Source: an uncultured Acidimicrobiia bacterium
GTDB lineage: Bacteria; Actinomycetota; Acidimicrobiia; UBA2766
Direction: 5' to 3'
Assembly (NCBI GenBank): GCA_964370965.1
Contig: CAYJLW010000013.1
Location: 5,696-69,695, forward strand
Length of the DNA: 64,000 nucleotides
Part shown: positions 12,823 to 36,271 of the stretch, piece by piece
Position numbering within the stretch: the stretch's first letter is position 1
Layout: every line of letters begins with the position of its first letter
Translations under genes and position numbers: made by a program
Notes under the pieces: model-generated
Told to the model about the DNA's origin: nothing
Databases searched by the model: none
What the model saw: the letters and a program-made list of their open reading frames with translations, nothing else

Positions 12823-13379
12823 CTACACAACCGTGGATCGACCGCCTGGCGGCTCCCCGATGCCGAAGCGCGACTCCGTGACCGACACGTACTCCCGGCC
12901 CAGGTCCAGGCGGGCCGAGCCGAGCTCGGGACGGTTGGGCGTGTCGGGGAACATCTGGGGCTCCAACGACACCGAGCCGTGACGACGGAACGGCGCGCCA
13001 AGCCCGTTGCCTGTGTACACCTGATCGGCGCTCACGTGCATCCAGCGGCCGCTGGCGGGTGCGTCCAGCACCGCGGCCAGGCGGACGGTCCCCGCTTCTC
13101 CGGCGATCTCGTAGCAGTGGTCGAGTCCCGGCCCCGACGCCTCGCGTATCGCCCGATCGAAGCGCCCAGATGCGGGTTGCGTCCGTGGTCCTCGTACGCC
13201 GCGAGATCCGGCAGGCTGAGGTGGACGTCGGCGAGCTCACCCGACCTGTCCGGTGCTTCCAGCGAACGGATGGCCGCCCCCAGGGCGAGCAACCGCAACC
13301 GCAGCACGGGGCTCTCCAGACACACCTGCTCGACAGCGTGGCCGTCCTCGGTCACCCCCATCTGCTCCGCGAGCGCCAT
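12823..13379 (-). pseudogene. aldose 1-epimerase (mutarotase) N-terminal fragment, frameshifted
   Basis: The first frame gives ...LPDLAAYEDHGRNPHLGASIGRYARR (the mutarotase LGASIGRYANRI block). It then runs out of frame and resumes in another frame (RHGSVSLEPQMFPDTPN). Only about 180 codons remain before the cofD end. Confidence 0.45.
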
Positions 13380-23821: not shown

Positions 23822-25627
23822 TCAGATGGGCATCCGATAACCGAAGAACTCCTGGTCCTCGTTGTACCCGCCCTGTCCGGCACCGAGGCGGTCGAAGCTT
23901 TCCACGAGCTCGATGGCCTCGATCCACTTGACCTGCTTGAAGCCGAGCTCGACCTCGTCGCGCAGCCGGAGTGGCGCGCCGTAGGACTCCCCGAGGGGCT
24001 CGCCGTTCATCTCGTAGGCGAGGATGGTGAGCTCGTGGTACATGTTCTCGATCTTGTGGCAGTCGTAGTAGCGCCCGGTGCCGGGGGTCTCGGGGCCTTC
24101 GGCGAAGGAGTAGAAGACGACCCAGCGGGCGCCGGGGAGCGGCTCGGCGAGGGCGAGGACGTCCGACATCGCGACGCCGCCCCACTTGGCGATCCCGGAC
24201 CAGCCCTGGATGCAGTAGTGCTGGGTGACCTGTTCCCGCTTGGGCATGGCCAGCAACTCGGAGTAGGAGAGCCTGATCGGGTTGGCCACCAGGCCCTCGA
24301 TCTTGAGCGTGTAGTCGGCCCAGCCGCCGGCCCGGAGGCGCCTGTACTCCTCGGAGTCGGGAAGGTGCCCGTTGGGCCAGAAGAAGGCCGAGACGTCCTT
24401 CTCGGAATAGGTGGCCCTGGGGTCCCACCACTCCATCAGCCCCTTGATCCAGCCCACCGTCGCGGCGCCGACCTTCTGCACGGTCCGGGGCCTGCGGATG
24501 GTGAACGGGGACGCCGCCGCCCCCCAGGCGGCGCCGACGGGCAACCCCCCCCCGTAGACGGCCAGCGCCCACCCCGAGTCCGTGTTCGTGCCGAGCGTGA
24601 TGTGGTTGAGGTTCCCGACCAGGCCGGTGGCAAAGACCATCACGGTGTGCATGACGACGAAGAACACCATCCATGCCAGCACGCCGAAGTGGATCGTGCG
24701 GGCCACTTGACGATTCAGCAGTCCGGCGCCGAAGCCGAACTTCCCGGCGATCGAAGGCGCCTGCAGGAGCCCCGTGACGAATGCCAACGGCGCCGCGACG
24801 AAGATCGTCAGGAAGTACGCGAGGATCTGCAACCCGTTGAAGCGGGTGAACCCGGTGTTGGCCGGGAAGTCCAGCGACGCGTACTGGATCGCCGCGGACA
24901 GGGCGTTGGGAAACACGTCAAGTGACCGAGGGACCAGCCGTTCCCACTGGCCGCCGGCGAACAGCAACACGAAGAAGATCACGCCGTTGACGAGCCACAA
25001 CAGGTCGAAGCTGAAGTGCCACCAGCGGGCCAGGCCGACGGAGTGGCGAAACCCGGGGATACCCAGCCACCTCGGCAACGCCACCGAGTCGTCCTTTGCC
25101 GTCCACACCTGGGTCGCCTCGGCCGGGTCCTGGCGATCGGCCGGGACAGGGCCCCGGATGCGCAACCATTCACGGCCCGGTCTGCTCCCCGAGTCCAGGC
25201 TCAGGCGGGGGTGGTCGGCCAGGATCTGCAACCCGGCCCGGATGATGAACATCATGAACAACAGGTTGAAGAAGTGCTGCCAGCGCAGCCACCACGGGAA
25301 CCCTCCGTCGACCTCCGGCACGTAGGACCCCGACGTGCCCGGGTACCGGCGGATGAAGTCCCGCATCCAGTCGTAGTGACGCAGCTGCTGGGCCACGGCG
25401 ATCGACAGCACCAACCCCACCGCGACCAACGGGACCAACCACAACGAACTGAGCCACCGCCGACCCACCCGCACGAACGGCACCGTGGCCTTCTGGTCCT
25501 CCATGCCCCCCGCCCAGTCCTCCACCACGATGCGCCCGTCTAACACGCCCTGACGTTCGTGCGGATCGAGCAGCCCCTCCAGACGCGCGGCCTCGGTCTC
25601 CGGATCCGGCTCGGGTGTACCCGTCAT
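23822..25627 (-). CDS. molybdopterin-dependent oxidoreductase (sulfite-oxidase/YedY-like catalytic domain) fused to an N-terminal polytopic membrane domain
   Basis: The N-terminal 400 aa have at least 6 hydrophobic helices. The C-terminal domain has the Moco-oxidoreductase block HYCIQGWSGIAKWGGV...GAPLRL. Confidence 0.75.
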   Translation of the reverse strand: MTGTPEPDPETEAARLEGLLDPHERQGVLDGRIVVEDWAGGMEDQKATVPFVRVGRRWLSSLWLVPLVAVGLVLSIAVAQQLRHYDWMRDFIRRYPGTSGSYVPEVDGGFPWWLRWQHFFNLLFMMFIIRAGLQILADHPRLSLDSGSRPGREWLRIRGPVPADRQDPAEATQVWTAKDDSVALPRWLGIPGFRHSVGLARWWHFSFDLLWLVNGVIFFVLLFAGGQWERLVPRSLDVFPNALSAAIQYASLDFPANTGFTRFNGLQILAYFLTIFVAAPLAFVTGLLQAPSIAGKFGFGAGLLNRQVARTIHFGVLAWMVFFVVMHTVMVFATGLVGNLNHITLGTNTDSGWALAVYGGGLPVGAAWGAAASPFTIRRPRTVQKVGAATVGWIKGLMEWWDPRATYSEKDVSAFFWPNGHLPDSEEYRRLRAGGWADYTLKIEGLVANPIRLSYSELLAMPKREQVTQHYCIQGWSGIAKWGGVAMSDVLALAEPLPGARWVVFYSFAEGPETPGTGRYYDCHKIENMYHELTILAYEMNGEPLGESYGAPLRLRDEVELGFKQVKWIEAIELVESFDRLGAGQGGYNEDQEFFGYRMPI

Positions 25628-27562: not shown

Positions 27563-30508
27563 GTGAGCGCACCAGACCCCTCCCGCCCCGGCGAAGCCCG
27601 CCACCGCTCCCGCTGGACATGGGACAGCGTGGCGTGGGGCAGCCACTGCGTGGACTGCTACCCGGGCAACTGCAGCTACCGCCTGTACGTGCGCGACGGC
27701 AAGGTCGTGCGCGAGGAGGTCGCCGGCGCGGGCGAGCCCTCCTCGGGCTCCCTCCCTGACGGCCTCCCCCTGGGATGCAACAAGGGGGCGGCCTGGAGCG
27801 CCCAGATCGAGGGCCCCGACCGCGTACGCTGGCCGATGCGCCGGGTGGGAGAGCGGGGCTCGGGCGCGTGGGAACGCCTGAGCTGGGACGACGCCCTCGA
27901 CGCCGTCGCCGACGTCCTCGTCGACACGATCGAGGCCGACGGACCCGGCGCCATCCTCCGGGAGGGGACACCCCAGGTCGGCGTCGGTCTCGCCCCGGAT
28001 CGTTTCGTACACCTCCTCGGCGGCACCGTCACTGACCTGAACGGGGCGATCAACGACTTCGCCAACGGCCTGCACATCACGTTCGGGAAGTCCAACCCGG
28101 TCTACTCGCCCCGCAGCGTCTTCGAAGCCGACGTCCTCCTCCTCTGGCACATCAACCCCGCCTACACGCTGATTCCCGTCTACCACTGGATGACCGAGGC
28201 CCGCTACCGGGGCGCCGAGGTCGTCCTCTTCTCCCCCGACGTGAACCCCACCCACAGCCACGTCGACTACGCGGTGCCCGTACGCTGGGGCGCCGACGCC
28301 GCGGTCGTCCTCGCCATGTGCCAGGTGGTCGTCGCCGAAGGCCTCGTCGACGAAGGCTTCGTCGCGACCCAGACCGACCTCTCGCTGCTCGTGCGCACCG
28401 ACACGGAGCGGTTCCTGCGCGAGAGCGACGTCGTCGCCGGCGGCCACGAGGAGCAGTTCTTCCACCTCGACCCCGGGCGGGGCGTCGTCCCCGCCGACCG
28501 CGCCAACCTCCTGTGCGACTACGAACCCGCTCTCCGGGGCCGGACGACGGTCACCCTCGCCGACGGCGGCGAGGTCGTCGTGGCGCCCCTGTTCGAGCGG
28601 GTGGCGTCCCTCCTCGCCGACTACACGCCCGAGGCCGCCGCCGAGGTGGCCGGCACGCACCCGGAGACGATCCGCACCGTCGCCCGCAAGGTGGCCGCCG
28701 GACGCACGTATGCCGCCATCGGAGGGGGCGCCGAGAAGCTCTACCACGGCGACCTCTTCCAGCGCTCCGCCCACCTCCTCCTCGGCCTCACCGGGAACTG
28801 GGGTCGCCCCGGTGCCGGGACGACGTCGTGGTCGGTGCCTCATGGCGACGGCTCGCTCCTCACGTCCGCGAAACGGACCCCCGGCCCCGAGGGCGCCGAA
28901 GTCGTCCTCGCCCTCCTCGAGAGCCTCGCCGCCGCCGTGAAGGCGTCGGACCCCACGATGTCCGACGAGCTCGCCGCCTTCGCCCTGCACCGGGGACCCC
29001 TCGCCGACAAGGCCATGGTGCCCCCGTTCTTCTTCTGGTATTGGCACGCCGGGTTCGCGGAGCGGCTCAACAACACCGCCTGGGGCGACCCCACGATGAA
29101 ACGCACCTATGACGAGTACGTCCAGGAGGCCCTCGACGAGGGCTGGTGGGCCGGCTTCGACCGCCCCGGCCCCGACGACACCCCCCGGGTCCTGATCGAG
29201 TGTGGAGGCAACATCCTGCGCCGCACCCGGGGCGGTGGTCGGCTCCTCCTCGAACACCTCTGGCCGAAGCTCGAGCTGATCGTCACCATCGACTTCCGCA
29301 TGTCCCTCACCGCCCTGCACTCCGACGTCGTCCTGCCCGCCGCCCAGCCCTACGAGAAGGTGGGCACGCACATGCCCTCCATGGAACTCACCCTCTCGGA
29401 CAGCGCCGTGGAACCCGTCGACGACGCGCTCCCCGAGTGGGAGATCTTCGCCGGTCTCTGCCGGGCCGTCGAGCGCCGCGCCGCCGCGCGGGGCCTCGAG
29501 CACTTCCGCCACTCGGGCGGCGCCCGGCGCCGCTACGACAAGCTCTGGGCGGCCTTCACCCTTAAAGGCGTCCTACGCACGACCGAGCACGTCGTGGACG
29601 AGACCATCCGGGACGCCGCCTACGCCGGGATCCTTCCCGAGGGCACGACGCTGGAGTCCCTGCGGGAGTCCGGGCGCATGAACTTCACCGGCTGGGGCGT
29701 GACCGCCTTCGGCCAGAGCCAGGCAGCGGACTGGCAGGACGACGTCCGGACCGTCGTCCCCTGGAGCAACCACGTCGAGAAGGGCGACCCCTACCCCACC
29801 CTCACCCGCCGGGCGCAGTTCCTCGTCGAGCACCCCTGGTTCGTGGAAGCGGGCGAGGACCTCCCCTGCCACAAGGAGCCCCCGCAGATGGGCGGCCCCG
29901 GCCGCTACTGGATGACCACCGGGCACAACCGCTGGTCGATCCACGCCATGAACATGGCGAACCCGTGGCTCATCCAGACCCACCGGGGCGAGCCCCACGT
30001 CGTCGTCCACCCCGAGGACGCCGCCCGCGAAGGCATCGCCGACCACCAGCCGGTGCGGGTCTCCAACGAGGCGGGCTCCTTCGTCGTGCGGGCGAAGCTC
30101 TCCCCCACCCAGCGCCCCGGCGGCGTCACCGTCTACTCGGGCTGGGACGGCCACCAGTTCCCGGGCTGGAACCCGCCCAGCGACGTCGAGCCCAGCCTCG
30201 TCAAGCACCTCGGACTCGCCGCCGGCTACGGCCACCTCCGCTACGGACCCATGGAGTGGCAGCCCGTCCCCTGCGACCGCCCCGTCGCCGTCGACATCGA
30301 GGCCGTCGTGGAGGGGGTGGGGGGGGGGGTGGCGCCCCCCCCCCCCCCCCGGGCCGGGGGGCCCGCGGCCCCCCCCCCCCCCCCCCCCCGCTCGCCCGGG
30401 GGCGCCGGCGGCACCACACCACCACACGACCGGGATGGCGGTGGCGCCGGAGACGAAGGTCCTTGCTCACGAGCGGCCAACCGTGTTCCACCGCCGTGGC
30501 ATAGATGA
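27563..30508 (+). CDS. molybdopterin bis-MGD oxidoreductase (DMSO-reductase superfamily) with N-terminal Cys-cluster motif; 3' end unresolved
   Basis: The N-terminal HCVDCYPGNCSYRLYVRDGKV...LGCNKG is an FeS-type Cys motif with atypical spacing. Size (about 920 aa) and the C-terminal molybdopterin-dinucleotide-binding domain fit the family. There is no twin-arginine signal. The reading frame continues through G/C homopolymer tracts at 30313-30400 as poly-Gly/Pro. The truncated paralog at 7015-7440 suggests the true stop lies near 30315. Confidence 0.75.
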   Translation: MSAPDPSRPGEARHRSRWTWDSVAWGSHCVDCYPGNCSYRLYVRDGKVVREEVAGAGEPSSGSLPDGLPLGCNKGAAWSAQIEGPDRVRWPMRRVGERGSGAWERLSWDDALDAVADVLVDTIEADGPGAILREGTPQVGVGLAPDRFVHLLGGTVTDLNGAINDFANGLHITFGKSNPVYSPRSVFEADVLLLWHINPAYTLIPVYHWMTEARYRGAEVVLFSPDVNPTHSHVDYAVPVRWGADAAVVLAMCQVVVAEGLVDEGFVATQTDLSLLVRTDTERFLRESDVVAGGHEEQFFHLDPGRGVVPADRANLLCDYEPALRGRTTVTLADGGEVVVAPLFERVASLLADYTPEAAAEVAGTHPETIRTVARKVAAGRTYAAIGGGAEKLYHGDLFQRSAHLLLGLTGNWGRPGAGTTSWSVPHGDGSLLTSAKRTPGPEGAEVVLALLESLAAAVKASDPTMSDELAAFALHRGPLADKAMVPPFFFWYWHAGFAERLNNTAWGDPTMKRTYDEYVQEALDEGWWAGFDRPGPDDTPRVLIECGGNILRRTRGGGRLLLEHLWPKLELIVTIDFRMSLTALHSDVVLPAAQPYEKVGTHMPSMELTLSDSAVEPVDDALPEWEIFAGLCRAVERRAAARGLEHFRHSGGARRRYDKLWAAFTLKGVLRTTEHVVDETIRDAAYAGILPEGTTLESLRESGRMNFTGWGVTAFGQSQAADWQDDVRTVVPWSNHVEKGDPYPTLTRRAQFLVEHPWFVEAGEDLPCHKEPPQMGGPGRYWMTTGHNRWSIHAMNMANPWLIQTHRGEPHVVVHPEDAAREGIADHQPVRVSNEAGSFVVRAKLSPTQRPGGVTVYSGWDGHQFPGWNPPSDVEPSLVKHLGLAAGYGHLRYGPMEWQPVPCDRPVAVDIEAVVEGVGGGVAPPPPPRAGGPAAPPPPPPRSPGGAGGTTPPHDRDGGGAGDEGPCSRAANRVPPPWHR
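30313..30400. repeat. G/C homopolymer tract cluster (G11, C16, C24 runs) at convergent gene ends
   Basis: Directly visible: gggggtgggggggggggtggcg, then C16, then gggccgggggg, then C about 24. Both flanking genes lack proper stop codons here. Confidence 0.8.
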
Positions 30509-30803
30509 GCCGGTCCGCCGGGTCGCCGGGGAACGAAGCCGGCAGGGCCGCGGCGATGTCCGCCACGGCCGGCGAGACCGCCACAGTGCGGATCTGCACC
30601 GCCAGGGACTCCAGCCAGGAGCGCACCGGAACCGACACGCGGATCCTGTCGTGGCGCGCCAACCACGCCAACTCGAACCACGTGATCCCACTCACAGCCA
30701 GCTCGTCGGCGCCGGCGACCGTCTCGGTGGCGGTCCGACTCAACCGCTCCGGCTCAGCAGACCACCACTGCACCACGTGCGTGTCGAGCAGGACGGTCGT
30801 CAC
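30440..30803 (-). CDS. vapC: PIN-domain toxin VapC (C-terminus runs into the homopolymer tract; end uncertain)
   Basis: GTG at 30803 forms a GTGA overlap with the antitoxin stop. VTTVLLDTHVVQWW gives the PIN motif with its N-terminal Asp. ...IYATAVEHGWPLVSKDLRLRR is the usual C-terminal block. Confidence 0.6.
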
Positions 30804-31027
30804 TGGAGTTCCCAATCGGCGCCGGTCGAGAAGAGGTCGTCCTCCTCCGCTGCGCTCACGGCCACTCCGGAGAGCCGTCCTCTGAGACCCGCGGGCCCTC
30901 CTGCCGGGACGAGGCGGGCGACCGGGCGTCCCCTCTTGGTGATGAGCACCTCCTCGCCGGCGGCCACCTCGTCGAGCAGGGCGAGGATGCGGGCCTTCAC
31001 CTCGGTGGCGGTCATCTGACGGGTCAT
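30800..31027 (-). CDS. Phd/YefM-family antitoxin
   Basis: MTATEVKARILALLDEVAAGEEVLITKRGRPVARLVP is the Phd/YefM signature. Confidence 0.75.
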   Translation of the reverse strand: MTRQMTATEVKARILALLDEVAAGEEVLITKRGRPVARLVPAGGPAGLRGRLSGVAVSAAEEDDLFSTGADWELQ

Positions 31028-31078
31028 GTGGTCATGTTAGTGGCCGCCACACATTCCAAGCCGCCGGACCGGCTGCGC

Positions 31079-31510
31079 CTACTCGTCGAGGGGGTGGGCC
31101 CAGCGCAGACCGGGGAACCGGGCGAAGCCCCGGTCGGCCGACACCCAGGTGCTGCCCTGCTCGACCGCGATCGCCGCCAGGTAGGCGTCCGGGACGACGT
31201 TGCCCTTCGCGCCGACCCGCCGGCAGAGGTCCGAGAAGATGCCCCAGTGCCGGTCGCCCGGCGCCACGGTCGTCGTGGCCGGGGAGGCACGGAGCGCATC
31301 CACGAAGTCCAGGGCGACACCGAGGGGGGTGGGCTCACGGAAGACGCGAGGATGGGTCACGACCCGAAGGAAGCCACTCGCCACGACGTCACTGAGCCCC
31401 AGCGGTTCGGGAGAGCGACGAGCCGCATCGAGCCACCCGCGGTAGGCCTCGTGGCCGAGCGACTCCGGCCGGTGGGCGAACACGAGGACGTTGACGTCAA
31501 CGCAACGCAT
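31079..31510 (-). CDS. vapC: PIN-domain toxin VapC
   Basis: MRCVDVNVLV (Asp5), VPDAYLAAIAV and WVSADRGF are PIN catalytic acidic positions. 143 aa. Confidence 0.8.
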   Translation of the reverse strand: MRCVDVNVLVFAHRPESLGHEAYRGWLDAARRSPEPLGLSDVVASGFLRVVTHPRVFREPTPLGVALDFVDALRASPATTTVAPGDRHWGIFSDLCRRVGAKGNVVPDAYLAAIAVEQGSTWVSADRGFARFPGLRWAHPLDE

Positions 31511-31754
31511 CGCCAGGCGTGCTCTCGTCCATCACGTCTGCGAGGGCGGCGTTGCTCGTGAGGTCGACGCCGGCCAGGACGCCGCTCCCCCCGAAGACGG
31601 GCAGGGGCGCCACCCCTTGTTCCGGTGCCCGCCGGGGCCGCAGGGCCTCCCGGACGGCGTCTTCGATGACCTCGCCGACGGTGCGACCGGTCTGGGCGGC
31701 GCGGGCCTTCACCCGCCGGTAGAGCTGGTCCTCGATCCGGATCGTGGTCCGCAT
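31497..31754 (-). CDS. vapB: ribbon-helix-helix (CopG/VapB-type) antitoxin
   Basis: MRTTIRIEDQLYRRVKARAAQTGRTVGEVIEDAVREAL is the RHH fold signature. Overlaps the vapC start by 14 nt. Confidence 0.7.
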   Translation of the reverse strand: MRTTIRIEDQLYRRVKARAAQTGRTVGEVIEDAVREALRPRRAPEQGVAPLPVFGGSGVLAGVDLTSNAALADVMDESTPGDALR

Positions 31755-31772
31755 GGTGCATCTTAGCACCAT
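31753..31772. promoter_or_regulatory. inverted repeat ATGGTGC-N6-GCACCAT overlapping the vapB start codon (likely autoregulatory operator)
   Basis: Perfect 7-bp arms, seen directly in the sequence. Confidence 0.45.
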
Positions 31773-32146
31773 ACGGAAGCACCAAGATGCCGGGGCGGAG
31801 GCCCCCCTCCCCGCGACCCCCGCTCGCGCACGGTCGCTGGTCCCGGCCTGGGGCGCCTGTCGCCGACGAGTAGCCTCCGGGGAGTGAGACGCTCGAAGGG
31901 CTTTTGTCTCACCGAGGGGGGCGGTGAACTCGCAGGCGAGAGGTCCGAGATCCGCCCCCCGCCCGCAATGTCCTGCTCAGCGGGGACATGACGCACCCGT
32001 CACAGACCATTGCGCTCATGCTGCAAACTCTTGTATCGTTCGTCAGGAAAGCGAGGATTTCTCCTCGTTACCGCACGTAACTCAGAATCAAGAGACAGCG
32101 CAACGCCAACCGGGCCGTTCCGGCCGACCACCACGGGGGGTTAACC

Positions 32147-33847
32147 ATGGAGGAGCGCTTCGACTTCGTCATCGTCGGGGGCGGCCACAACGGCACCACG
32201 ATGGCGGCCTACCTGGCCAAGTCAGGGGCGTCGGTCTGCGTCGTGGAGGCGAGACCGGAGTGCGCCGGGGGCCAGGAGAACACCGAGCCCGTCCCCGGCT
32301 TCCGCATCGACCCGCACGCCACGTACCTGTACGGCGGCGCCGCCCCCGGCTTCGAGCAACTCGAGCTCGCCAAGTACGGGTTCCGTTTCGTCCCCTACCG
32401 CTCCATGTTCGGCTTCGTCACCTCCGACGGCGCCGCCGTCAACTCCGGGAGCCGCTGGGACCAGAACATCGGCATGGAGTCCCTCACCGCCGTCGCCGGC
32501 GCCGAGGTCGCCCAGCGCCGTTTCATGATGGACAACATGCCCATCGAGGTCATGCGCGACTTCCTGCGGGCCATGTTCTGGACGGCGCCCTACCCCGCCG
32601 AGATGGAGTTCGAGGCCATCGACCTCCCCTGGGCGCAGTACCTGAAGAAGGCCCTCAACGGCGCCTTCTCGGAACGCTGGCTCGAGATGTCCCTCATCGA
32701 GTTCATGGACGAGGCCTACGGCTACGAACCCATGAAGGTCGCCCAGGCGATGGCCTCCTGGTACTCCGGCGCCCACCCCACCTGGGAAGGCCAGGCGCTC
32801 CCCTCACTGGGGGGCGCCATGCTCGCCGGCTACGCGTCCGGCTCCCCGCGGGGCGGCATGCACGCCTACGCCCACGCGATCATCCGCTGCGCGCTCGCCC
32901 ACGGCGCCCGCATCATCACGAACTCCGAGGTCGAGGAGATCGTCGTCCAGAACGGCCGCGCCGTGGGCGTCCGCCTGGGCGAGGACTCCGCCTTCCCCGA
33001 GAAGGTCATCTGGGCGGACAAGGGCGTCATCTCCGGCGTCGACGTCAACCAGACGTTCCTGCGCCTCATCGGCAAGAGGCACGTCGACGCCGGCTTCTAC
33101 CAGCGGGTGAGCGACGTGAACTTCAAGGGCGGGAGCCTCTACGTGCTCTCCGTCGCCTGCCGGGAGCTCCCCCGCTACCACGGCAACCCCGACTACTTCC
33201 GCGACGAGGTCTACCCCTCCTGCGTGGTCTGGCCCTCGGACTCCTACGAGAACCTCTACGCCCAGACCGAGGACGTCTACAGCCGCAAGGTCGTGCCGGA
33301 GCTCACCAAGGAGCACCTCACGATGATGGTCATCACCCACGACCCCTACGACCCCACGCGCACACCCGAAGGCCACCACCTCCTCTCCCCCATCTACCTC
33401 CAGATCCCCCCCACGCACTACGACGTCGCGGGGCCCGAGGGCCTGAACAAGGTCAAGGACCAGGTCACCAAGGCCGTCCTCGACCTCCTGGAAGAGGGCG
33501 CCCCGAACATGACCTCGGACAACATCGAGCACATCTGGGTGAACACCCCGTACGACTCGGAGTTCCGCAACGCCGGCATGGTGGCGGGGAACTGGTACGG
33601 CGCCCGCCAGTCCGCCGACCAGTGGTTCCACACCCGACCGCTCCCGGAGCTCTCCCGCTACCGGACGCCCATCGAGAGCCTCTACCTGTGCAACCACACC
33701 TCCCACCCCGGTGGCCTCTGCCTCATGGCGGTGCCGTACAACCTCATGCACATCCTCATCGAGGACGACCTCGTGGCGCCCGGCTCGTGGTGGTACCCGT
33801 CGCCGTGGCACGTGACCGAAAACGGCAAGCAGCTCCAGGAGGCGTGA
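32147..33847 (+). CDS. CrtI/phytoene-desaturase-family FAD-dependent oxidoreductase (paralog B1)
   Basis: FDFVIVGGGHNGT...C-terminal CNHTSHPGGLCLMAVPYN. Preceded by a leader of about 390 nt that is relatively AT-rich. Confidence 0.85.
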   Translation: MEERFDFVIVGGGHNGTTMAAYLAKSGASVCVVEARPECAGGQENTEPVPGFRIDPHATYLYGGAAPGFEQLELAKYGFRFVPYRSMFGFVTSDGAAVNSGSRWDQNIGMESLTAVAGAEVAQRRFMMDNMPIEVMRDFLRAMFWTAPYPAEMEFEAIDLPWAQYLKKALNGAFSERWLEMSLIEFMDEAYGYEPMKVAQAMASWYSGAHPTWEGQALPSLGGAMLAGYASGSPRGGMHAYAHAIIRCALAHGARIITNSEVEEIVVQNGRAVGVRLGEDSAFPEKVIWADKGVISGVDVNQTFLRLIGKRHVDAGFYQRVSDVNFKGGSLYVLSVACRELPRYHGNPDYFRDEVYPSCVVWPSDSYENLYAQTEDVYSRKVVPELTKEHLTMMVITHDPYDPTRTPEGHHLLSPIYLQIPPTHYDVAGPEGLNKVKDQVTKAVLDLLEEGAPNMTSDNIEHIWVNTPYDSEFRNAGMVAGNWYGARQSADQWFHTRPLPELSRYRTPIESLYLCNHTSHPGGLCLMAVPYNLMHILIEDDLVAPGSWWYPSPWHVTENGKQLQEA

Positions 33848-33851
33848 GACC

Positions 33852-35567
33852 GTGACCCGTCAGACCTACGAAGTGCAGGTTCCTCCCGAAGAGCGCATCC
33901 TCGACGAGTTCCCGGAGCGCTCCGAGTTCGACGTAGTCGTCGTGGGTGGGGGCCCGAACGGCCTCATGACCGCCGCCTACCTCGCCCGTGCCGGACTGCG
34001 CACCGTCGTCGTGGAGCGCCGCCACGAGATCGGCGGCGGCCTCGCCACGGAAGAGGTCCTCTTCCCCGGCTACTACACCAACGTCCACGCCGTCTATCAC
34101 ATGATGACGGACTTCATGCCCCTGTTCCGGGACTTCGACTTCGCCAAGCACGGCCTCACGTTCGTGAAGCCCAACGCCCAGACGGCGGCGGTCTTCCCCG
34201 ACGGCAAGAGCCTGCTCCTCTGCAACCAGCTCGAGGACACCAAGGACTCCATCGCGAAGTTCTCCCGCCAGGACGCCATCAACTTCGGCAAGGTCATGCG
34301 CACCTGGCGCAAGGTCGTCGACGAAGTCGTGGGGCCCGCCACCTACGTGCCGCCCGTGGCCCCGATAGACATGATCGAGGCGTTCGAGCGCACCGAAACC
34401 GGCCGTGAGACGCTGCGCCTCACGGAGATGTCCCCCGTCGAGATCATCGACGAGATCTTCACCGACGACCGCGTGAAGATGACGATGCTGTACGCCGCCT
34501 GCATGTGGGGCCTGGACCCGACCGACACCGGCCTCGGGTTCATGGTGCCCCTGCTCATCGACCGCACGATGAACAAGGCGATCGCCTATGGCGGCTCCCA
34601 CAAGCTCGCCGGAGCCCTCTCCCGCGAGATCCACAAGGCCGGCGGCCTCGTCGTCGACAACGCCGAGGTCACCCGGATCATCGTCGAGGGCGGCGCCGCC
34701 GTCGGCGTGGAGACGTTCGACGGGCGCGAGATCCGGGCGAAGGCCGTGGTCTCCAGCCTCGACCCGCAGACCAACTTCCTCCGCCTCCTCGAGCGCGACC
34801 AGGTGCCCGCCGACCTCGTCACCCGCGCCGAGGGTTGGGAGTGGGACAAGTGGTCCTTCTTCACGGTCTCCCTCGCCATGACCGAGGCGCCCAAGTACGT
34901 CACCGACGACCCCTGGGTGAACAAGGCGTTCATGACGATCCTGGGCTTCGACTCCACCGAGGCTCTCCTGGCGCACTGGGACGGCGTCCTGAACAACCGC
35001 CTCGGCCCCGGTCTCGGCGGTCACGCCACCACCGAGACCCTCTACGACCCCACCCTGTCGCGGGTGCAGAGCGGGTCGCCGCACCCGTGGGCCGAGGAAC
35101 CGCCGGCAGCCAAGGGGCCCCGCCACCACGTGGCGTTCCTGCAGATGCACGCCCCCTACGACCTCGAGGGGGGCTGGAAGCAGCGTCACGACGCCCTCGT
35201 CGAGGAGACCATCGAGACCTGGGGGCGCTACGCCCCGAACGTCAAGGCCGAGAACATCCTCATCCGCTCCGGCGAGTCGCCCCTCGACATCGAGCGGCGC
35301 ATGCCGAACATGGTGCGGGGTTCCATCAAGCACGGCGACTACAACTCGCTGCAGATGGGCGTGTTCCGTCCCGACGACTCCTGCGTGGGCGGCCGCAGCC
35401 CGATCCAGGGCCTCTACCTCTGCGGCGCCTCCAACTACCCGGGCGGCCTCGTCATCGGGGGGTCCGGCTACATCGCCGCCAACACCGTGGCCGAGGACCT
35501 CGGCGTCGAGAAGTGGTGGACCCCGCCCCGGCACGTGGCCCGCTTCGAGGAGACGTACATGTCATGA
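33852..35567 (+). CDS. CrtI/phytoene-desaturase-family FAD-dependent oxidoreductase (paralog B2)
   Basis: FDVVVVGGGPNGL...ERRHEIGGG; C-terminal CGASNYPGGLVIGGSGYIAAN. GTG start 4 nt after the B1 stop. Confidence 0.85.
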   Translation: MTRQTYEVQVPPEERILDEFPERSEFDVVVVGGGPNGLMTAAYLARAGLRTVVVERRHEIGGGLATEEVLFPGYYTNVHAVYHMMTDFMPLFRDFDFAKHGLTFVKPNAQTAAVFPDGKSLLLCNQLEDTKDSIAKFSRQDAINFGKVMRTWRKVVDEVVGPATYVPPVAPIDMIEAFERTETGRETLRLTEMSPVEIIDEIFTDDRVKMTMLYAACMWGLDPTDTGLGFMVPLLIDRTMNKAIAYGGSHKLAGALSREIHKAGGLVVDNAEVTRIIVEGGAAVGVETFDGREIRAKAVVSSLDPQTNFLRLLERDQVPADLVTRAEGWEWDKWSFFTVSLAMTEAPKYVTDDPWVNKAFMTILGFDSTEALLAHWDGVLNNRLGPGLGGHATTETLYDPTLSRVQSGSPHPWAEEPPAAKGPRHHVAFLQMHAPYDLEGGWKQRHDALVEETIETWGRYAPNVKAENILIRSGESPLDIERRMPNMVRGSIKHGDYNSLQMGVFRPDDSCVGGRSPIQGLYLCGASNYPGGLVIGGSGYIAANTVAEDLGVEKWWTPPRHVARFEETYMS

Positions 35568-36076
35568 GGCTCAAGTCCCGCGGCCTGGGCCGCAAAGAGC
35601 TCGTGATGGACTTCCGCGAATACGACGTCGTCGCCGACGGCGACGAGATCGTGATCATGGGCACCATCCACGAGCCCGTCCACTGGGATTTCTCGATCCG
35701 GGTCTGCGAGGACGACCTCGCCGGGATCATCAACGTGGCCCTGAAGAAGTCGACGCGGCGTTTCGCCCTGCGGGCGATCTTCCGGCGCGACAAGCGCCAC
35801 CACTGGAACACCGACCGCGCCCGGCGAGTCGTCCTCGCCCGCGAGCACAGCCTGGACCTCGCCCGCAAGGAGGCGAAGGCCGCGCTCCCCGAGGGCGTCG
35901 AGGCCGACGCTGCCGAGGCCGCGATCGAGAACGACAAGGGCGTCCGCAAAGCGAGGAAGAGAGCCGAGAAGGCCCAGCGGAAGTACTCTGCCCAGGAGGA
36001 GACCGCCGCGACGGTCGTCGCCCCGGCCCCCGGTGACGCCGAGAGCCTCTCGGACGTCGGTTCGGGAGCCGCGTGA
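35566..36076 (+). CDS. hypothetical protein (compact N-terminal domain plus Lys/Arg/Ala/Glu-rich tail)
   Basis: ATG forms an ATGA overlap with the B2 stop. Codon usage is consistent with coding. No family recognised. Confidence 0.45.
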
Positions 36077-36271
36077 CGGTGTCGGGCCGTCGTCCCGGCC
36101 CCGCCCAGAACCGGCCCCGCTCCCGGGCGGGCCAGGTGAGCGTGGTGGCGGTGAAGTTGTCGGTGCCCGGGGCGAATCCCTGCGTCTGATACCCGTCGGG
36201 ATCCCCCCCAAAACGCCCCGGGCTCCGGCTTCGGGGGGGGAGTTCCGCTCCCCCCCCGGACTCTCACGCCG

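Follow-up and report, generated by a model that had tools for sequence, protein, structure and literature searches.

Two tandem VapBC-type toxin-antitoxin operons, probably functional, on a contig of an uncultured Acidimicrobiia bacterium

Four small genes lie together on the minus strand of contig CAYJLW010000013.1 from an uncultured Acidimicrobiia bacterium and form two consecutive gene pairs of the VapBC type, each with the antitoxin gene first (Table 1; all coordinates are positions in the 64,000-nt stretch that was analysed, here called the window). The genes around them (ADC, molybdoenzyme, CrtI1, CrtI2 and p170) share the plus strand, and the four toxin-antitoxin genes are the only ones between these on the minus strand. 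No type II toxin-antitoxin system is more common than VapBC, and in Actinobacteria modules are routinely found in tandem or in clusters. The original prediction had described two such modules, one with a Phd/YefM antitoxin and the other with a ribbon-helix-helix (RHH) antitoxin, and this description was upheld. Searches with the PIN, PhdYefM and RHH_1 models that it had proposed identified a PIN domain in both toxins and the respective family in each antitoxin, all above the curated cut-offs, and the genes of both antitoxins and of toxin 2 were found exactly where it had placed them.

Table 1. Features identified at the toxin-antitoxin locus (positions in the window).
Feature	Position	Strand	Remarks
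G/C homopolymer block	30310..30395	.	G11, C16, C21; read as an assembly artefact
VapC toxin, module 1	30411..30803	-	PIN domain, 130 aa, GTG start at 30803
Phd/YefM-fold antitoxin, module 1	30800..31027	-	75 aa
Promoter and operator candidate, module 1	31028..31059	-	Read from the sequence; function putative
VapC toxin, module 2	31079..31510	-	PIN domain, 143 aa, VapC43-like
Ribbon-helix-helix antitoxin, module 2	31497..31754	-	85 aa, ATG start at 31754
Promoter and operator candidate, module 2	31750..31795	-	Read from the sequence; function putative

The antitoxin of module 1 belongs to the Phd/YefM family by its N-terminal fold domain, with scores of 38.6 bits against the Pfam model PhdYeFM_antitox (PF02604; cut-off 29.8, E 9.1e-10) and 41.7 bits against the NCBIfam model TIGR01552 (cut-off 20.8, E 5.2e-11), these profile matches covering residues 5–42 only. 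Its TGA stop codon and the GTG start codon of toxin 1 share the 4 nt GTGA (30800–30803), an overlap that had been predicted and can be read directly from the sequence. Toxin 1 matches the PIN model (PF01850) at 65.1 bits (cut-off 23.6, E 1.2e-17), and none of its acidic residues D7, E44, D97 and D115 varies among 30 family members. Among the best-scoring matches listed, nearly all VapC1 homologues are 130 aa long. Homologues of antitoxin 1 at 72–74% identity are always followed by a VapC1 homologue, with the same 4-nt overlap. An Rfam match to guanidine-II inside the Phd gene was sub-threshold (18.7 bits against 32, E 0.95) and was rejected as chance.

In module 2, the two genes overlap by 14 nt (31497–31510). 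The antitoxin was identified by RHH_1 (33.7 bits, cut-off 20.5, E 3.2e-8), and its homologues begin with M/V-R-T-T and keep the 14-nt overlap; a 91-aa form starting from the ATG at 31772 was rejected, given this homologue start and an extension that is not conserved. Toxin 2 matches the PIN model at 47.0 bits (cut-off 23.6, E 4.7e-12) and is also a member of the VapC43-like subfamily TIGR00028 (Mtu_PIN_fam), scoring 144.3 bits (cut-off 73.6, E 2.8e-42) over profile positions 2–142 of 143. Residues D5, E117 and D126 are invariant among 34 members, with D108 and E35 conserved in at least 90%. Both toxins are therefore PIN proteins with conserved acidic active-site residues, and directly upstream of each, in the same operon and overlapping it, is a small gene for a DNA-binding antitoxin. 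The modules are new members of known families and ordinary VapBC types, and Mycobacterium tuberculosis already provides examples of both antitoxin-toxin pairings. The region is best explained as two independent, probably functional, chromosomal type II VapBC operons.

Each operon is predicted to have its own promoter. Upstream of antitoxin 1, a -10-like TAACAT (31039–31034) is found 6 nt before the ATG, flanked by GACCAC/GGCCAC repeats (31033–31028 and 31045–31040), and a palindrome, GTGGC-G-GCCAC, occupies 31050–31040. All three independent homologous modules compared have a TANNNT hexamer whose distance to the downstream ATG is exactly 6 nt, with GACCA(C/G) on its flanks; these modules are few and related by descent, as are the six compared for module 2. 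There, 5 nt separate the -10-like TAAGAT (31765–31760) from the ATG, a spacing towards the lower limit of what is usual, and the hexamer is accompanied by GATGC at 31762–31758 and GCATC at 31790–31786. The comparison of TAAGAT and GATGC covered environmental homologues only, not Rv2871, and in these TAAGAT was found 5–7 nt upstream of the start codon in five of the six independent modules, with two to three GATGC/GCATC 5-mers in each at approximately -38, -29, -18 and -9 (0.16 expected).

With a TANNNT hexamer 5–6 nt from the start codon here (5–7 nt in homologues) and no Shine-Dalgarno sequence before either antitoxin start, the mRNAs of both modules are probably leaderless. Leaderless mRNAs are common in Actinobacteria. 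In mycobacteria, about a quarter of transcripts are leaderless and an ANNNT -10 motif is located between -13 and -6 relative to the transcription start (PMC6448022). A sigma-70 consensus scan of 30100–32300, which needs an E. coli-like -35 element, found no promoter; mycobacterial promoters do without this element (PMC6448022), and such a scan is uninformative for an actinobacterium. The likely antitoxin binding sites are the repeats at the -10 elements, namely GACCAC/GGCCAC in module 1 and GATGC/GCATC together with a palindrome in module 2. As they flank or overlap the hexamer, antitoxin binding would occlude RNA polymerase.

The palindrome of module 2, ATGGTGC-N6-GCACCAT, had been put forward as a possible autoregulatory operator. 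It is present as described, perfect and with 7-bp arms, at 31753–31772, where it contains the start ATG (31754–31752) and lies over the likely promoter. By itself it is not significant, because perfect inverted repeats of this arm length with spacers of 0–12 nt occur 3.4 times per kb in the window and turn up in 11% of shuffled versions of the 111-bp promoter region (P ~0.11), and its weight comes from its position and partial conservation. The notion that it is a chance inverted repeat, with module 2 regulated via other sites or not autoregulated, is doubtful, though far from negligible: besides the frequency of such repeats in this GC-rich DNA, the dyad degenerates among homologues (6/7, 5/7, 4/7 and 2/7 complementary arm positions), and the conserved GATGC/GCATC and TAAGAT elements account for its left arm and part of the right. 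However, the midpoint of the dyad falls exactly on the conserved -10 hexamer and the repeat covers the start codon, which is where antitoxin operators are classically found, and the two best-conserved dyads (6/7 and 5/7) are from independent homologues. We favour the phased GATGC/GCATC repeats as the conserved operator candidate of module 2, with the window palindrome as a local variant; conserved repeats and palindrome overlap the conserved -10-like hexamer, where they may serve autoregulation. A wider proposal, the prospects of which we put somewhat below even, is that the abundant VapBC43-like family of environmental Actinobacteria and their relatives would share a fixed cassette in which a leaderless promoter has its TAAGAT within four helically phased GATGC/GCATC sub-sites (at the four positions given above), read by the RHH antitoxin as a cooperative array and not as a single palindrome, and that the entity passing from genome to genome would be this unit of ~0.7 kb, its promoter being part of it.

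With regard to genomic position, the original prediction had the modules inserted into a functional cluster made up of the molybdoenzyme and its CrtI-like "partner genes", which was not borne out by related loci. A CrtI-like pair was directly downstream of molybdoenzyme relatives (38–66% identity) in none of 16 loci, and a molybdoenzyme was directly upstream of CrtI-like relatives (23–69% identity) in none of 27. Given this lack of contiguity, the modules lie at the boundary of two separately conserved units, ADC with the molybdoenzyme on one side and CrtI1-CrtI2-p170 on the other. A recent insertion of the toxin-antitoxin block into a once-contiguous operon, whose molybdoenzyme and CrtI-like oxidoreductases worked together, is unlikely. 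Such an event would suit the common orientation of the five flanking genes, the lower GC3 of the toxin-antitoxin genes and their close homologues in unrelated contexts (see below), and also three other loci (L002, L029 and L030) in which relatives of both enzyme types are at most 10 kb apart. In those loci, however, 7–10 kb lie between the two, their strands are opposite, and the molybdoenzyme near the CrtI-like pair has an identity of only 41%. Furthermore, CrtI1-CrtI2-p170 form a unit with an upstream region of its own, where the closest CrtI-like loci carry a divergent Rrf2-like regulator (no remnant of this was found at the junction with the CrtI-like pair), and a strong hairpin terminates the molybdoenzyme gene in the clean assembly. 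No relative with the enzyme genes contiguous and the site empty of modules was found, the nearest being only 66–69% identical. It is most likely that the modules have no functional tie to either flanking metabolic unit.

Acquisition of the modules specific to this lineage is likely, since the 43 loci that carry relatives of the flanking genes contained no homologue of the module proteins. Pairs of cognate antitoxin and toxin that keep the respective overlap, at 63–76% identity, were identified in seven unrelated contexts for module 2 and in two for module 1, one of these contexts adjoining an ISL3 transposase. In the homologous loci examined, modules 1 and 2 were never adjacent, each occurring alone with its own promoter, at 69–76% identity and in surroundings unrelated to those here. 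The GC3 of the four genes is 0.84–0.88, compared with 0.924 +/- 0.025 in a set of 33 long window genes. Together, these comparisons indicate that the modules are most likely portable units which this lineage acquired separately. A plasmid collection gave only distant relatives (33–54% identity) and no sign of a plasmid origin, and three scans of viral contigs, using single proteins and a family alignment, gave no relatives and no sign of phage carriage.

The downstream end of toxin 1 differs from that originally predicted. The gene and its PIN fold stood, while the proposed end at 30440 did not, as there is no stop codon there and the resulting 364 nt are not divisible by 3. The frame in the window is open from 30815 to 30201 (a 204-aa ORF) and has no stop at the expected place, reading TGC at 30413–30411. 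Other assemblies of the same population read TGA at this position, which sets the end of the 130-aa protein at 30411, and this intact protein (P0121) is encoded, identical, on 23 contigs of the same population. The stop loss, if real, would give toxin 1 a 74-aa low-complexity tail.

Beside this position is the G/C homopolymer block, which the original prediction had not recognised as an artefact and where a 32x contig reads GGGGGTCGAGGGGCG-GTAG-CGCCCCTCGACCCCC, a clean hairpin with a 15-bp stem and the molybdoenzyme stop codon TAG in its loop. In that assembly the hairpin separates the molybdoenzyme and VapC1 genes, which are convergent; for the 76 nt that include it, the folding energy is -52.9 kcal/mol (z -3.8). 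The block replaces the hairpin and removes the molybdoenzyme stop codon. At this place, six assemblies of the same population with identical flanks have 126, 136, 168, 169, 204 or 264 nt. Over 13.4 kb, the window differs from the 32x contig by three substitutions, all within 30 nt beside the block; these are further base errors (30395, 30411 and 30423), and VapC1 owes the loss of its stop to that at 30411. Over 21.7 kb, all differences from L017 are at 24523–24549 and 30319–30423, nearly every one of them a change or insertion that yields G or C. On these comparisons, the block reads as an error made by assembly at a strong GC hairpin and not as biology. Real hypervariability in the form of phase-variable G/C tracts was considered and rejected: a unique hairpin sequence has been replaced and there is no repeat expansion, the tracts differ in every assembly between identical flanks, and the remaining differences between window and 32x contig likewise form clusters directed to G/C. 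Decay of one or both modules, with toxin 1 a pseudogene or fused to a Gly/Pro/Arg-rich tail through loss of its stop, would explain the open frame in the window but is highly improbable in view of the intact protein on the 23 contigs, the clustering of the only three substitutions in 13.4 kb by a block of assembly-dependent length, and the intact catalytic residues of toxin 1. For annotation, toxin 1 should be taken as 130 aa and the molybdoenzyme as 922 aa; the 981-aa and 204-aa ORFs, which end in Gly/Pro-rich tails, are spurious.

By analogy with known VapBC systems, the C-terminal part of each antitoxin would bind and block its toxin, and the DNA-binding domain at the N-terminus would repress the promoter of its own operon. 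On degradation of the labile antitoxin, the PIN toxin would be free to cleave RNA, typically a tRNA or rRNA loop, leading to translation arrest. Antitoxin 1 would be translationally coupled through the GTGA overlap to a predicted 130-aa PIN ribonuclease, and antitoxin 2 through the 14-nt overlap to a predicted PIN ribonuclease of 143 aa that belongs to the family of M. tuberculosis VapC43. What the sequence itself shows of this scheme is which domains the proteins contain, the order and overlaps of the genes, and the conservation of the acidic active-site residues. Overall, we consider with good confidence that the locus is best explained by two independent, probably functional and separately acquired VapBC operons without a tie to their flanks, together with G/C errors of assembly. 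The biological weight of this is small, these being common systems with known pairings, and its practical value is in annotation.

Among known systems, module 1 resembles VapBC46 of M. tuberculosis (6JQY) and 3DBO in pairing a Phd/YefM-fold N-terminal domain with a PIN toxin. VapB46 (E 0.004) and 3DBO (E 0.007) are the nearest solved chains to antitoxin 1, both being weak matches over residues 5–42, and its toxin has no sequence-detectable solved relative. Autorepression from an operator that covers the -10 element is described for type II operons, E. coli yefM-yoeB among them (PMC4803016). Both modules share with yefM-yoeB the antitoxin-first order and palindromic or repeated sites overlapping the -10 region, but differ in having PIN-domain toxins and not the RelE/YoeB fold, in their repeats (GACCAC and GATGC as against TGTACA) and in their probably leaderless mRNAs. 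The closest known system to module 2 is VapBC43 of M. tuberculosis (Rv2871/Rv2872, PDB 7VWO; Eun et al., 2022, ref. 60 in PMC13273310). Toxin 2 is 56% identical to its VapC43 chain (7VWO_A, E 1.2e-45) over the full length without gaps and falls in the same TIGR00028 subfamily. An RHH-type antitoxin is likewise encoded upstream, its C-terminal segment weakly matching the VapB43 peptide and its N-terminal part weakly matching VapB26. Unlike VapBC43, module 2 belongs to an uncultured Acidimicrobiia-like actinobacterium. To the VapBC43-like family it adds a small refinement, its conserved promoter elements suggesting leaderless expression and a repeat-array operator.

The window has a G+C content of 71%. 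Searched against a species-level genome collection, it finds its closest relatives among MAGs of Microthrixaceae and Acidimicrobiia, with at most 66% protein identity. Four minus-strand ORFs were found between a plus-strand molybdopterin oxidoreductase gene (the molybdoenzyme) and two plus-strand FAD oxidoreductase genes (CrtI1 and CrtI2). Family assignments were judged against curated cut-offs, which all four ORFs exceeded, the PIN profile matching both toxins and PhdYefM and RHH_1 each matching its respective antitoxin. These scores, together with the antitoxin/toxin overlaps read in the sequence (GTGA at 30800–30803 in module 1, 14 nt at 31497–31510 in module 2), confirmed the original prediction of two tandem VapBC modules with Phd/YefM and RHH antitoxins. 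Among VapBC types, both the RHH-VapC and the Phd/YefM-VapC pairing are established. The acidic PIN residues D7, E44, D97, and D115 are invariant among 30 members of the toxin 1 family, as are D5, E117, and D126 among 34 members of the toxin 2 family, in which D108 and E35 are at least 90% conserved. Both toxin families are very large (>7,900 matches at E <= 1e-10 and 4,794 at E <= 1e-8, respectively), with many matches 70–78% identical. Both modules are ordinary VapBC systems, new members of known families, and they are probably functional and autoregulated.

Features of the toxin-antitoxin modules and of their surroundings, with profile scores and curated cut-offs for the module genes
Feature	Coordinates	Strand	Profile	Score (bits)	Cut-off (bits)
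Toxin 1	30803 downwards	-	PIN	65.1	23.6
Module 1 antitoxin	30800–31027	-	PhdYeFM_antitox; TIGR01552	38.6; 41.7	29.8; 20.8
Toxin 2	31079–31510	-	PIN; TIGR00028	47.0; 144.3	23.6; 73.6
Module 2 antitoxin	31497–31754	-	RHH_1	33.7	20.5
Module 1 palindrome	31050–31040				
Module 2 palindrome	31753–31772				
Molybdoenzyme	27563–30301	+			
CrtI1	32147–33847	+			
CrtI2	33852–35567	+			
Three-gene FAD oxidoreductase unit	32147–36076				
G/C homopolymer block	30310–30395				
Cytochrome b561/Oxidored_molyb gene	23822–25627				
Substitution cluster	24523–24549				
G8...C8 inverted pair	36203–36257				
Aldose 1-epimerase-like ORFs	12823–13379	-			

Toxin 1 does not end at 30440, as had been proposed; this position holds no stop codon, and in the window the frame remains open as far as 30201 and encodes 204 aa. 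The convergent molybdoenzyme frame continues to 30508 (981 aa). A homopolymer block (G11, C16, and C21) that is unique in the window is traversed by both. Exact-protein look-ups identified many assemblies of the same population within one ENA sample series. The stretch between anchors that are identical across these assemblies is shortest, at 126 nt, in a contig of 32x coverage; its other lengths are 136, 168, 169 (the window), 204, and 264 nt, the extra sequence of the longer assemblies consisting entirely of G/C runs. In the 32x contig the sequence at this place is GGGGGTCGAGGGGCG-GTAG-CGCCCCTCGACCCCC, a hairpin of 15 bp whose loop contains TAG, the stop codon of the molybdoenzyme, and the 76-nt stretch around the hairpin has a folding energy of -52.9 kcal/mol (z -3.8). 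In that contig the molybdoenzyme gene encodes 922 aa and the toxin 1 gene 130 aa, the latter terminating in ...VVVW-TGA. The window and this contig, compared over 21.7 kb, differ only at 24523–24549 and 30319–30423, and nearly all differences are changes or insertions to G or C; they include single-base differences at 30395, 30411, and 30423, of which the one at 30411 is a T-to-G change that converts the toxin 1 TGA to TGC at 30411–30413. Nearly all of the best-scoring toxin 1 homologs are 130 aa. We conclude that errors of assembly or sequencing, made across a very stable GC hairpin, account for the block and the two missing stop codons. Lying between convergent genes, this hairpin probably acts as a terminator in both directions. 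The chief use of the analysis lies in this correction of the local annotation, with its artefactual homopolymers and two lost stop codons.

The substitution cluster comprises seven changes relative to the 32x contig, mostly A to C and producing a C9 run, within the 601-aa cytochrome b561/Oxidored_molyb gene, which other assemblies break or split there; a further sequencing artefact with G/C bias is the probable cause. The gap that follows the gene for a 170-aa protein (p170) contains the G8...C8 inverted homopolymer pair, and one other assembly (L018) is ~160 nt longer there; the pair is probably another badly assembling GC hairpin or terminator. The two short overlapping ORFs (82 and 115 aa) resemble aldose 1-epimerase at its C-terminal and N-terminal ends only (Pfam PF01263, profile positions 231–297 and 3–61), and represent either a truncated or frameshifted gene or a further assembly error.

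The proposal that the modules split a molybdoenzyme–CrtI cluster was not borne out, the two sides being contiguous in no locus compared: a CrtI-like pair was absent downstream of the molybdoenzyme in all 16 molybdoenzyme loci, as was a molybdoenzyme upstream of the CrtI-like genes in all 27 CrtI-like loci, the nearest relatives available for comparison of the empty site being only 66–69% identical. Relatives of the two enzyme types occur within 10 kb of each other in three loci (L002, L029, and L030), but 7–10 kb apart on opposite strands. The recurrent neighbor of the molybdoenzyme in the 16 loci is an ADC-like gene, and CrtI1-CrtI2-p170 is a conserved unit in its own right, with a divergent Rrf2-like regulator upstream in the closest relatives. 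The modules are thus located at the boundary of two metabolic gene units and not inside an operon.

As to their origin, the modules are most likely two portable units that were separately acquired, which fits their unrelated contexts, their absence from loci with relatives of the flanking genes and their lower GC3. Homologs of module 2 (69–76% identity) were looked up in seven unrelated contexts, with neighbors including PDH E1, glutamate synthase and thiolase, NAD synthase, and a VapB-PemK module; wherever the antitoxin was called, its gene encodes 84–88 aa and overlaps the toxin by 14 nt. Module 1 homologs (72–74% identity) pair a 75-aa antitoxin with a 130-aa toxin through a 4-nt overlap, one beside an ISL3 transposase and another between groES and a TPP enzyme. 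Among the homologous loci looked up, the two modules never adjoin each other outside the window, and tblastn, even at E < 0.05, found no homologs of the four module proteins in 43 loci with flanking-gene relatives. GC3 is 0.84–0.88 in the module genes against 0.924 ± 0.025 in 33 long genes of the window. At loci L057–L059 a 75%-identical module 2 homolog is followed ~110–160 nt downstream by another toxin-antitoxin pair, a VapB-like antitoxin with a PemK/MazF toxin; tandem stacks of unrelated modules are therefore a recurring arrangement in module 2 family contexts.

Upstream of the RHH gene the minus strand reads GCATC-TTGGTGCTTCCGT-ATGGTGC-TAAGAT-GCACC-ATG. In five of six independent homologous modules the M/V-R-T-T start codon is preceded at 5–7 nt by TAAGAT (CATTAT in the sixth), and no Shine-Dalgarno sequence was found upstream of the module 2 antitoxin. 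Mycobacterial promoters have their -10 motif, (T)ANNNT, between -13 and -6 relative to the transcription start and show no -35 consensus, and ~25% of mycobacterial transcripts are leaderless (PMC6448022). The TAAGAT spacing, the absent Shine-Dalgarno sequence, and the mycobacterial -10 placement lead us to infer leaderless mRNAs that would begin at the start codon.

The perfect palindrome ATGGTGC-N6-GCACCAT, previously put forward as a candidate autoregulatory operator, was read directly in the sequence and lies inside a conserved operator-like region, but is not significant alone, since 11% of shuffles also contain such a palindrome. GATGC/GCATC 5-mers number 2–3 per 63 nt in every homologous promoter, against 0.16 expected from the window background, and recur near -38, -29, -18, and -9, with a spacing of roughly one helical turn. 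The left palindrome arm, ATGGTGC, takes the place of a conserved (G/A)TGATGC site in the homologs, the right arm starts with the GC of a TAA-GATGC site, and dyad complementarity is 7/7 in the window and 6/7, 5/7, 4/7, and 2/7 in homologs. We consider the repeat array a better-supported operator candidate than the palindrome, which we regard as a local variant of it. For module 1 the promoter layout is analogous: in all three independent modules the ATG is preceded, at a distance of exactly 6 nt, by TAACAT, TAGAAT, or TATACT, bordered by GACCA(C/G) repeats, and the window also carries the palindrome GTGGC-G-GCCAC. Operators overlapping the -10 element are the norm in type II systems (review PMC4803016).

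Of the flanking enzymes, the CrtI-like proteins score so far under the CrtO (157–187 bits, cut-off 1000) and crtI_fam (49–94 bits, cut-off 238) thresholds that any part in carotenoid metabolism is hypothetical; FAD oxidoreductases, within that superfamily, is the better description for them. The two paralogs (~28% mutual identity) and p170, which has no Pfam match, form a conserved three-gene unit (loci L028–L050) present in many metagenome contigs, and up to five or six paralogs occur consecutively in L041, L042, and L045. Two short inverted repeats, GTGAGAC-N15-GTCTCAC (near 31884–31912) and ATGTCC-N9-GGACAT (near 31969–31989), lie in the 374 bp that separate the RHH gene from CrtI1 and could be regulator sites of the CrtI-like operon; 31880–31990 has no Rfam match. 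The molybdoenzyme is type II DMSO-reductase/ethylbenzene-dehydrogenase-alpha-like (TIGR03479 766 bits, EbdA 688 bits, both under their cut-offs), and seemingly lacks an N-terminal signal region because the profile match begins at position 45–68. No beta or gamma subunit genes adjoin it. Its relatives (including L002, L004–L006, and L010) occur as several paralogs per genome in Acidimicrobiia and Chloroflexota MAGs, where they often adjoin an acetoacetate-decarboxylase-like (ADC) gene.

Among solved systems, toxin 1 has no relative detectable by sequence, and the nearest to its antitoxin are VapB46 (6JQY) and a 3DBO chain, both across the Phd/YefM-fold N-terminal domain. The module 2 antitoxin gives weak matches to the RHH region of VapB26 and to the VapB43 peptide, and toxin 2 aligns without gaps to M. 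tuberculosis VapC43 (PDB 7VWO) at 56% identity.
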